Assembly (NCBI GenBank): GCA_963842525.1
Contig: CAWJGT010000019.1
Span: 256,001 to 320,000 of the forward strand
Direction: 5' to 3'
Length of the DNA: 64,000 nucleotides
Source: an uncultured Holophagales bacterium
Lineage (GTDB): Bacteria; Acidobacteriota; Thermoanaerobaculia; Multivoradales; UBA5704
Shown: piece by piece, positions 12,301 through 15,300 of the stretch
How the letters are laid out: each line of letters starts with the position of its first letter
Position numbering within the stretch: position 1 is the first letter of the stretch
The notes under the pieces: model-generated
What the model saw: only the letters and a program-made list of their open reading frames with translations
Told to the model about the DNA's origin: nothing
Databases searched by the model: none
Translations under genes and position numbers: made by a program

Positions 12301-15300
12301 CTGGCGCTCGGCTACCTGGGCCAGCCCGAGCTGACGGCCGAGCGGTTCGTGCCCGATCCGTTCGGTGATCTCCGGGGCGAGCCCGGCGCGCGGCTCTATC
12401 GCTCGGGCGACTTGGCGCGGCGGCTGCCGGACGGCGATCTGGAATACCTCGGCCGCATCGACCACCAGGTCAAGATCCGCGGCTTCCGCATCGAGCTGGG
12501 GGAGATCGAGACCGCCTTGTGCCTGCACCCGGCGGTGCGCGAGGCCGTGGTGATGGCGCGGGATCTCGCGGGCGAGCGCCAGCTCGTGGCCTACGTGGCG
12601 GCCGACCCACAGGCCGCGCCGACCCTGGGCGAGCTGCGCTCGTTCGCCGCGGCCCGGCTGCCCGACTACATGCTGCCCTCGGCGCTGGTGGCGCTGCCGG
12701 CGCTGCCGCTGACGGCCCACGGCAAGGTGGACCGCCGGGCGCTGCCCGAGCCCGAGCGGGCCCGGCCCCAGGGCGAGCGCGGCAGGGTGGCGCCGCGTAA
12801 CGAGATGGAGACCTTCCTGGCCGGGCTGTTCCGCGACACGCTCAGCCTGGAGGAGGCCGGCATCCACGACGACTTCTTCGAGCTGGGCGGCAATTCCATT
12901 TCGGGCGCGATCCTGATCAACCGCCTCCAGGAAGCGATCTCCGAGGTCGTCCAGGTCGTCGTGATTTTCGACGCGCCGAGCGTGGCGAAGCTGGCCGAGT
13001 ACCTGGTGCGCGAGCATCCCCGGGCGGTGGCGCGCCTCTGGGGCGAGCAGGTGCCGGTGGAAGGCCTGCAGATCCATCATGTCGACGAGGCCAGGATCGA
13101 GGACCTGCGCGCGCGCATCCGGCCGCTGGCCCCCCTCGCGCAGACACCGATCGCGAGCAAGAACCCACCGGCAATCTTCGTGCTGTCCCCGCCGCGCTCG
13201 GGCACGACGCTGCTGCGCGTCATGCTCGGCGGCCATCCGAAGCTTTTCGCTCCACCGGAGCTGGAGCTGCTGTCGTTCAACACCCTGGCCGAGCGGCGCG
13301 CCGCCTTCTCCGGCCGTGACAGCTTCTGGCTCGAGGGCGCCGTGCGCGCGGTGATGGAGATCCGCGGCTGCACGGCCGAGGAAGCGGGCGCTCTGCTCGA
13401 CGGGCTCGCGAACGAGGACCTGTCCACCGCCGGCCTCTACGGTCGCATGCAGGAGTGGCTCGGCGATCGGATGCTGGTGGACAAGACACCCTCCTATGCA
13501 CTCGACCCGGCGGTGCTGCAACGGGCCGAGGAGGCCTTCGACCGGCCTCTCTATGTCCATTTGATCCGGCATCCGCTGGGCATGATCCGCTCCTTCGAGG
13601 AGGCCAAGCTCGACCAGATCTTCTTCCGCCAGGAGCACCCGTACACGCGGCGCGAGCTGGCGGAGATGATCTGGACCCTCAGCCACCGGAACATCGTCGG
13701 CTTCCTGCAGGACATCCCGCCGGAGCGCCAGCACTGGGTGCATTTCGAGGAGCTGGTCCGGGAGCCCGAGCGGGTGCTGCGCGGTCTCTGCGCCTTCCTG
13801 GGCCTCGACTACGACCCGGCCATGGTCGAGCCCTATCAGGGCGGGTCGTCGCGGATGACCGACGGTCCGCATGCGGCCTCGCGCATGCTGGGCGACGTCA
13901 AGTTCCAGCAGCACCGGGGCGTGGACTCCGCGGTGGCCGAGCGCTGGCGTGGGGAGCTGTCGGAGGAGTCCCTGGGTGAGGTCACGCGCGAGACCGCGGC
14001 CCGGCTCGGCTACGCGATCGAGGTGCGGGGCGAGCATCCGCAGTGGAAGCCTATCGAGCCGTCCGTGCTGGTGCCCGGCGAGCCGATCCCGCTCTCCTTC
14101 GCCCAGGAGCGGCTCTGGTTCCTCGACCGGCTGGCCCCGGGGTCGCCTGTGTACAACATCCCCACGGCCTTGCGGCTCTCGGGCCGGCTGCACATCGCCG
14201 CCATGGCAGCGAGCCTGCGCGAGATCGTGCGCCGGCACGCCACGCTGCGCACCCGTTTCACCGCCGTGGACGGCGTGCCGCACCAGGTGATCGACCCGGT
14301 GCCGGAGCTGCTCTTGCCGATGGTGGACCTCTCCGGGCTGCCGGTCGAGTTGCGCGACTCCGAGGCGCGGCGGCTGGCGGCCTTCGCAGCTTCCCGGCCT
14401 TTTGACCTGGCCCGCGGTCCCATGCTGCGGTCGGCGCTGCTGCGGCTGGAGCCGGAGGAGCATGCCTCGCTCCTGGCCATGCATCACATCACCTCCGACG
14501 GCTGGTCCATGGGCGTGCTCGTCCGCGAGCTGGTTGCGCTCTACGGCGCCTTCACCCAGGGCCTCCCCTCGCCACTGCCGGAGCTGCCGGTCCAGTACGC
14601 GGACTACGCCCGCTGGCAGCGCGACTGGCTCCAGGGGGAGGTGCTCGACCGCGAGATCGGCTTCTGGCGCGAGACCCTGGCCGGGGCTCCGGTCCTGGAC
14701 CTCCCGACCGACCGGCCGCGCCCGCCCGTCCAGAGCTTCCGCGGCGGGCTCCGGGGAGTGCACCTGCCGGCCGGGCCGAGCCAGGCCCTGTCCGCCCTGG
14801 GCCAGGGAGAGGGGACGAGCCTCTTCATGACCCTGCTCGCCGGGTTCGCGGCTCTGCTCTCCCGGTACGCGGGCCAGGACGACGTCTCGATCGGCTCGCC
14901 GGTGGCCAACCGGACGCGCTCGCAGATCGAAGGGCTGATCGGGTTCTTCGTCAACACGCTCGTGCTGCGCACGGACCTCTCGGGCGAGCCCACCTTCCGC
15001 GAGCTGCTGGGCCGGGTGCGGCGTGCCGCGCTCGGGACCTTCGCCCACCAGGAGCTTCCGTTCGAGAAGATCGTCGAGGAGGTCCACCCCCAGCGCGACC
15101 TGTCGCGCTCGCCGCTGTTCCAGGTGATGTTCGCCCTCCAGAACGCCTCCACCGAGGCGCTGGAGCTGCCCGGGCTCTCCCTGGTCCCCTTCGGGGCCGG
15201 CGTGAACGTGGCGAAGTTCGACCTGACGCTTTCGCTGTCCCAGGGGCCCTTCGGCCTGGCGGGGACGCTCGAATACGCCACGGCCCTCTTCGACGGTCCG

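Follow-up and report, generated by a model that had tools for sequence, protein, structure and literature searches.

A CurM-type sulfotransferase domain within threonine modules of a nonribosomal peptide assembly line of an uncultured acidobacterium

The window studied here (G000:C19:256001-320000) is a stretch of 64,000 nucleotides in contig C19 of the genome of an uncultured, Thermoanaerobaculia-like soil acidobacterium, which is 9.95 Mb in size and was assembled in 34 contigs. Positions 1-44411 of the window, on the + strand, form a single assembly line of nonribosomal peptide synthetase (NRPS) and polyketide synthase (PKS) modules. One of the NRPS modules, presumably specific for threonine (Thr), carries a sulfotransferase (ST) domain between its own carrier (T) domain and the condensation (C) domain that follows, and a second ST domain is cut by the start of the window. 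An earlier, sequence-only reading had described this arrangement and proposed that the ST gives O-sulfo-Thr or else uses the sulfate as a leaving group. In the present study, we examined the identity of the domain by profile, sequence, and structure comparison, surveyed the modules and carriers with which it occurs, and then considered the fate of the sulfate. We found that the ST is an intact relative of the CurM ST and that it goes with modules for hydroxy amino acids and with a carrier subtype of its own; the evidence leans toward a sulfate that is kept in the product.

Position and identity of the sulfotransferase domain

The features of the Thr module with the second ST copy (copy 2), and of the remnant of the first (copy 1), are listed below. 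The adenylation domain is abbreviated as A, the profile hidden Markov model as HMM, and the structures of the STs of CurM and olefin synthase (OLS) are given by their PDB codes (4gbm and 4gox, respectively).

9844-11187, + strand: C domain of the Thr module that bears ST copy 2 (Pfam/domain HMM)
11251-12726, + strand: A domain, code DFWNIGMVH (domain HMM, code extraction)
12814-12999, + strand: T domain, GGNS at the phosphopantetheine serine (domain HMM)
13000-13167, + strand: T-ST linker of about 56 residues, starting with EHPRAVARLWG (alignment)
13168-13995, + strand: ST copy 2, 276 residues (domain HMM, Pfam, phmmer, AlphaFold2 model)
13192-13209, + strand: 5'-phosphosulfate loop PRSGTT (motif match)
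13258-13260, + strand: putative catalytic Glu31 (alignment to 4gbm and 4gox)
13483-13485, + strand: putative catalytic Lys106 (alignment to 4gbm and 4gox)
13567-13593, + strand: 3'-phosphate motif RHPLGMIRS (motif match)
14083-15417, + strand: C domain that would use the product of the Thr-ST module as donor (Pfam/domain HMM)
3-290, + strand: ST copy 1, C-terminal third, cut by the window start (phmmer match to ST positions 182-276; full domain at C19:255460-256290)
378-1721, + strand: C domain immediately downstream of ST copy 1, sharing 78.9% identity with its counterpart downstream of ST copy 2 (Pfam/domain HMM)

The A, T, ST, and C domains around copy 2 share one stop-free frame (open reading frame (ORF) 8716-17076). 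The Pfam profile Sulfotransfer_3 (PF13469) matched residues 1485-1701 of this ORF with an E value of 1e-27 and a score of 98 bits (cut-off, 27), and the match covered profile positions 1-216 of 216. In a phmmer search against the PDB, the stretch 13012-14082 matched the CurM ST (4gbm) at E 8.9e-72 over query residues 45-336 and the OLS ST (4gox) at E 2.1e-63. The AlphaFold2 model of the ST, with 39 relatives in the alignment, had a predicted local distance difference test score (pLDDT) of 86.8 and a predicted template modeling score (pTM) of 0.87, and its only low-confidence loop comprised residues 234-241. The model superposes on 4gbm with a template modeling (TM) score of 0.91 and on 4gox with 0.88, followed by the tyrosylprotein sulfotransferases (TPSTs) with 0.49-0.59.

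The motifs PRSGTT and RHPLGMIRS align with the same motifs of 4gbm and 4gox, as do Glu31 (in PPEL) and Lys106 (in VDKTP) with the same residues of both structures; on the basis of the literature on the CurM ST and TPST, we take these two residues to be the catalytic base and the catalytic lysine. Arg10, Ser11, Gly12, Thr14, Glu31, Lys106, Arg134, Ser142, Gly242, and Asp243 are identical in at least 74 of the 76 ST domains of the survey described below, and they are invariant in the 39-row alignment, except for Ser11, which is nearly invariant (90% or more). ST copy 2 is, far beyond chance, an intact CurM-type sulfotransferase in an internal T-ST-C arrangement. The sequence-only reading had claimed an intact ST, with PRSGTT and RHP..S motifs, between the T domain of a Thr module and the next C domain at 12800-14090. 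This span comprises the T domain, the linker, the ST, and the first codons of the C domain, and the claim is borne out by the Pfam and phmmer matches, the fold, and the single open frame. The putative catalytic residues Glu31 and Lys106 are retained, as are the loops for 3'-phosphoadenosine 5'-phosphosulfate (PAPS).

The same reading had taken the fragment at the window start for a second, near-identical copy. The whole domain is present in the contig (C19:255460-256290), has 89.9% protein identity to copy 2, and also follows a T domain and an A domain with the code DFWNIGMVH. The genome contains seven full ST copies, all of them within megasynthase frames of 1887-8098 residues. As proposed, it is thus a tailoring domain of the CurM/OLS family that occurs internally and more than once in an NRPS and follows modules with a Thr code.

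The STs of CurM (curacin A) and OLS (Synechococcus PCC 7002) share with the window ST the family, the fold, and the PAPS loops, and in all of them the domain lies in a megasynthase directly after a carrier; the acceptor in the window would likewise be a beta-hydroxyl three atoms from the thioester. In CurM and OLS, however, the ST is part of a terminal unit of acyl carrier protein (ACP), ST, and thioesterase (TE) on a PKS, and the sulfate is lost in a decarboxylative release, whereas the window ST is internal (T-ST-C) on an NRPS. Off-loading in CurM and OLS depends on a terminal, decarboxylating TE of the CurM type, and what follows the window ST is a C domain. CurM-style chain release was rejected for the window because the ST is internal.

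Substrate codes, carriers, and loss of the domain

For the survey, 59 related loci, together with five regions of the genome itself, were annotated with domain HMMs built from the window. The set contained 76 full ST domains, of which 75 were different; some of the loci overlap or are close kin, and the rows are not independent. The next feature after the ST was a C domain within 500 nt in 70 of the 76 cases, a TE at the gene end in three, and the end of the locus in three. The A code upstream of T-ST was readable in 61 cases and belonged to the hydroxy type in 57, namely, Thr-type (DFW...) in 34, serine (Ser)-type (DVWH...) in 12, and tyrosine (Tyr)-type (DAST...) in 11. Here, DFWNIGMVH is presumed to be a Thr code, and all other assignments of codes to substrates are likewise presumed. 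As a control, we examined 48 A domains before an ordinary T-C junction, just four of which had a hydroxy-type code. This survey, which the sequence-only reading had suggested for T-ST-C junctions and the A specificity upstream of them, agrees with its view of the domain. The module after the ST had a hydroxy-type code in 17 of 46 cases, many of these modules having an ST of their own, and the module before it in 3 of 24. Because these fractions compare with 57 of 61 for the module to which the ST belongs, the ST tracks the residue of its own module.

The ST might instead act elsewhere, on a hydroxyl in another part of the chain (the polyketide or a hydroxylated residue) or on a separate small molecule. 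In four of the 61 cases, the A code before the ST is of a non-hydroxy type (DIWEITADD twice, DAWFLGNVV, and DAFTVAAVW), PKS modules are present in the line, and one A-less C-T-ST-C module occurs in the genome (C19:500434-503152, outside the window). On the other hand, the hydroxy code belongs to the module of the ST itself and far less often to the preceding one, the PKS modules of the line have no ketoreductase (KR) domain and thus make no hydroxyl, and the STs cluster by the substrate of their own module, as described below. The A-less module directly follows an A(DFWNIGMVH)-T module, the Thr A domain of which may load both carriers. We regard action elsewhere as improbable.

Carriers directly before an ST had GGNS at the serine in 68 of 76 cases and GGHS in none of the 76; among 104 carriers before a C domain, 94 had GGHS and four had GGNS. 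The STs of this type, found in Thr, Ser, and Tyr modules with a dedicated GGNS carrier and mostly in the order T-ST-C, are in these respects unlike those of CurM and OLS. In these four GGNS carriers, which are not followed by an ST, the beginning of the T-ST linker (...P.AVAR.WG) is retained. The case in the window consists of the following features.

3291-3572, + strand: ST-type carrier (GGNS) with a remnant of the T-ST and ST-C linkers, ST absent (alignment)
1776-3203, + strand: A domain, code DAWTVAAVC (phenylalanine (Phe)-type, no hydroxyl), of the ST-less module (code extraction)

The T domain at 3291 is 79% identical to the T domain at 12814-12999 and 39-45% identical to other carriers. 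The stretch from this T domain to the C domain at 3573 aligns with 12790-14160 (from T12814 to C14083) with a single clean gap of 329 residues at the place of the ST, and we read 3291-3572 as the footprint of an ST loss. The Phe-type A domain of this module and the adjacent Tyr-type (DASTVAAVC) A domain at 4962 share 80.8% identity. Among the ST-less carriers of the ST type, the A code was of the non-hydroxy type in 3/3 readable cases (DAWTVAAVC in the window, DAATVAAVC, and DAFWLGGTF); in the fourth, a frame break within the A domain makes the code unreadable. Judging from these alignments, the modules that appear to have lost the ST also have no hydroxy code in all three readable cases, and they may be regarded as natural loss experiments.

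Between copies 1 and 2, the ratio of nonsynonymous to synonymous substitution rates (dN/dS) of the ST is 0.21, and no other domain of the module pair is conserved as well: the dN is 0.06 for the ST, whereas the C, A, and T domains have values of 0.09-0.15. The T-ST linker between the copies has a dN/dS of 0.96, which corresponds to free drift. The low ratio and the strong conservation of the ST argue against an inactive relic or structural spacer, or a line that is a pseudogene as a whole, as does the retention of all of the cofactor-binding and putative catalytic residues; where the hydroxyl is gone, moreover, the ST has been cleanly deleted instead of decaying. What speaks for a relic is the presence of three frame breaks in the megasynthase of the window, with similar breaks in the other clusters of the same genome. 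They are single-base deletions at about 8700, 17000, and 30930, by which an acyltransferase (AT) domain, a T domain, and a domain resembling C or epimerization (E) domains (C/E-like) are each split between frames. As deletions of one base that recur in all clusters of an assembly of 34 contigs are what assembly error would be expected to produce, the breaks are probably such errors. We give very little credence to the relic explanation.

Fate of the sulfate

In the tree of ST domains (IQ-TREE quick search, with support from the Shimodaira-Hasegawa-like approximate likelihood ratio test (SH-aLRT) only and no CurM/OLS root), all 11 STs of Tyr modules and one unlabelled row form one clade (support 100). 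Another clade unites most STs of Thr modules and contains the two copies of the window as sisters; those of Ser modules are spread over a few clades. The Tyr clade carries its own substitutions (H23N, D51N, P127A, D149E, I151V, E156P, and E237W, the last of which falls in the low-confidence model loop 234-241), and thus the ST appears to read the side chain. Because the sulfate of Tyr cannot leave by beta-elimination, a stable ester is to be expected at least from the Tyr branch.

In a tree of 170 C domains (FastTree, no bootstraps), the C domains after an ST formed no distinct clade; 26 label changes were found for 65 rows, and at least 18 of them were forced by well-supported branches. A special 'eliminating' C domain coupled to the ST was therefore rejected, as the C domains that follow an ST are interspersed with ordinary ones. 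Both post-ST C domains of the window share 78-80% identity with the one that comes after the ST-less Phe module. At the three T-ST-TE ends of the survey, the TEs are nearest to NRPS TEs (7crn and 4zxh), and the TE of CurM, the structure of which we take to be 3qit, was absent from the 42 PDB matches of the TE behind one terminal T-ST (locus L034). CurM-style release is thus unlikely for these terminal relatives, since their TEs match those of NRPSs and not the CurM type.

With moderate confidence, we favor PAPS-dependent O-sulfation of the carrier-bound Thr by the ST of the same module, with the sulfate kept in the product. The A domain would load L-Thr onto the dedicated GGNS carrier subtype, the flexible arm of which would offer the tethered Thr, or a peptide ending in Thr, to the ST next in the chain; sulfation may come before or after condensation. 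The ST would move the sulfate from PAPS onto the beta-hydroxyl of Thr, the following ordinary C domain would hand the sulfated residue onward, and the final lipopeptide-polyketide would keep two O-sulfo-Thr residues. We lean toward stable sulfation because Tyr modules use the same family, the post-ST C domains form no clade, and the terminal TEs are ordinary NRPS TEs. Of the two outcomes that the sequence-only reading had left side by side, O-sulfo-Thr is accordingly preferred.

The other outcome is that the ST activates the Thr hydroxyl and the sulfate then leaves, either with loss of the alpha-proton to give dehydrobutyrine or by displacement by the amide oxygen or the amine to give methyloxazoline or aziridine. 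The closest solved relatives are two 'activating' STs, and the Foldseek matches include retinol dehydratase (1x8k) and LGS1 (22ga, 'sulfation-assisted BC-ring formation'). Thr and Ser, which are able to eliminate, account for 46 of the 61 upstream codes, and the STs for Thr, Ser, and Tyr lie in separate clades, so that their outcomes could differ. Furthermore, dehydro residues are frequent in known peptides, and O-sulfo-Thr is not known to be. Nevertheless, no elimination partner was found in the searches described above: the post-ST C domains form no distinct clade, those of the window closely resemble the one that comes after the ST-less Phe module, the terminal relatives have ordinary NRPS TEs, and the same domain family is used in Tyr modules. 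In addition, the sulfated intermediate of CurM is stable on its carrier until the TE acts. Loss of the sulfate seems to us unlikely on balance, while retaining a real share of the probability. In a more specific form of this proposal, the ST of the Thr/Ser clades would be a Burgess-type reagent, with the sulfate leaving on the line to give dehydrobutyrine or dehydroalanine, (methyl)oxazoline, or aziridine without a heterocyclization (Cy) or dehydrating C domain; this, too, we consider doubtful. If true, it would be a third, PAPS-driven route to dehydro and ring residues in nonribosomal peptides. Other routes are the dehydrating C domains of NRPSs and the lanthipeptide dehydratases, which use phosphorylation or glutamylation and then elimination.

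Several points weigh against a sulfate that is retained on Thr. The nearest characterized relatives, the STs of CurM and OLS, add the sulfate only so that it leaves, and the beta-hydroxyl of L-Thr is (3R), the same as in the (3R)-hydroxyacyl substrates of these STs. Glu33, beside the putative base, is present in all of the ST domains studied here, whereas CurM and OLS have His at this position. The argument from Tyr is direct for the Tyr clade alone, and the Thr clade, with both window copies, could differ; it is also possible that a beta-hydroxylated Tyr is the true acceptor in the Tyr modules. The four STs behind non-hydroxy codes do not fit, and the frame breaks, if real, may mean that the line is dead. 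We know of no isolated nonribosomal peptide with O-sulfo-Thr, and dehydrobutyrine is common in peptides. Finally, no cluster gene for PAPS supply and no sulfatase was found in the window flank (44-64 kb) or upstream of the cluster. The sole full match to adenosine 5'-phosphosulfate (APS) kinase is on another contig (C24:69174-69632, E 1.4e-57); its presence, which speaks for sulfation, means that the genome can make PAPS. The genome has 23 sulfatase-family matches, the nearest of which lies 26 kb upstream of the cluster, past unrelated genes.

A sulfate that is kept has parallels in the only NRPS-embedded STs that we found described, and these speak for the first outcome. OciA (cyanopeptolin 1138/oscillapeptin E; PMC2533009) and DysB (dysinosins; PMC6520454) contain an ST and are linked to products that keep a sulfated glyceric acid. 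The ST lies within an NRPS beside a carrier in these systems as in the window. The ST of OciA and DysB is assigned to a starter module beside an FkbH-type domain that loads glyceric acid, and it sulfates a hydroxy acid; the window ST, in contrast, belongs to an elongation module whose A domain has the code of a proteinogenic hydroxy amino acid, and STs of this kind often occur several times per line. No FkbH-type domain was found in Pfam scans of the six large ORFs of the window, and the module is a mid-line C-A(Thr code)-T-ST.

The TPSTs (TPST1/2; 3ap1 and 5wrj) are the next-best matches after CurM and OLS (E of about 1e-6 in phmmer; TM scores as given above). They share the PRSGTT-type loop and a Glu about 21 residues later with the window ST, and they sulfate a peptide hydroxyl on which the sulfate stays. 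They are, however, free-standing Golgi enzymes that act on finished proteins, and their identity in the structural alignment is 17-22%. Retinol dehydratase and LGS1, in which sulfation is followed by loss of the sulfate, are functional analogues of the leaving-group outcome and not CurM-type NRPS domains. A full-text search, the coverage of which ends short of subscription journals and supplements, turned up no work on CurM-type STs within elongation modules of NRPSs. The present analysis adds counts for the carrier subtype, footprints of ST loss, a monophyletic Tyr clade, and a tree of C domains.

Should the sulfate stay in the product, uncultured Acidobacteriota of soils would make a large unseen class of lipopeptides that are O-sulfated in-line, often multiply, and the NRPS toolbox would gain a new tailoring domain with its own carrier subtype as well as a portable T-ST cassette with which Thr, Ser, or Tyr could be sulfated at chosen sites. 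Loss of the sulfate would instead make the domain a new enzymatic means of forming dehydro or cyclic residues. With either fate, current structure prediction would be off by 80 Da or 18 Da per ST module.

Distribution, remaining modules, and flanking genes

Of the 7999 candidates scored, at least 1366, with lengths of 495-2000 residues, match the ST domain at E <= 1e-20. The best 120 matches all have PF13469, nearly all of them have NRPS domains or a TE, and none has a specific name. Among 151 sampled genomes of the class, four match at E <= 1e-60: this genome, two of the three others of its family, and one of another family. The ST family is patchy and concentrated in lineages with large genomes. 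The closest loci found in public genomes are all from uncultured Acidobacteriota, mostly metagenome-assembled genomes of Thermoanaerobaculia from soil.

The assembly line, of about 21 modules, begins at C19:216351, and the genes that precede it are unrelated (VWA proteins, NAD-glutamate dehydrogenase, and a DUF5916 protein). The domain order along the line was determined with the window-built domain HMMs and Pfam. In the window, the modules after ST copy 1 are as follows (ketosynthase, KS; methyltransferase, MT; major-facilitator superfamily transporter, MFS; numbers are start positions; all from domain HMMs/Pfam).

C378-A1776-T3291, + strand: module after ST copy 1
C3573-A4962-T6468, then KS6747-AT8319-T9580, + strand: NRPS module and PKS module
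C9844-A11251-T12814-ST13168, + strand: Thr module with ST copy 2
C14083-A15472-T16995, then KS17318-AT18890-T20153, + strand: NRPS module and PKS module
C20405-A21800-T23360, + strand: NRPS module
C23815-A25210-T26773, + strand: NRPS module
C27040-A28435-T30007, then C/E-like domain, + strand: NRPS module
C31699-A33103-T34645, + strand: NRPS module
C34933-A36319(MT)-T39112, + strand: NRPS module with MT
C-A41088-T42717-MFS, + strand: last module

In the two KS-AT-ACP modules (6747-9765 and 17318-20338), about 130 residues lie between the AT and the ACP, which leaves no room for a KR. These modules come after NRPS modules with the Tyr code and the code DLFNNALTY, and they would leave gamma-amino-beta-keto units. 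In the same line upstream of the window, three A domains (C19:224211, 230786, and 240678) have the common code CVQHIAQVI. This code does not have the usual Asp at the first position, which suggests a substrate without an alpha-amino group.

In the last module (39400-44411), one ORF encodes C-A-T and the major-facilitator transporter as a fusion. The MFS_1 match (E 4e-22) covers residues 1449-1788 of the 1889-residue frame, and an NRPS joined to a likely exporter is unusual.

The G+C content (GC) of the window is 0.63-0.76 and exceeds 0.70 in the NRPS-PKS part. Directly past the cluster (44000-50000), the GC falls from about 0.72 to 0.63, and ORF 47531-48583 (- strand) has a weak match to an IS200-like Y1 transposase (E 2.8e-4, below the Pfam cut-off). 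Given the drop in GC and this weak match, an element may have been inserted at the border of the cluster. Farther downstream (52181-54725), 8 kb beyond the cluster, lies what resembles a polysaccharide-type exporter: an ABC-2 permease together with a Wzt-type ABC ATPase that has the Wzt C-terminal domain.

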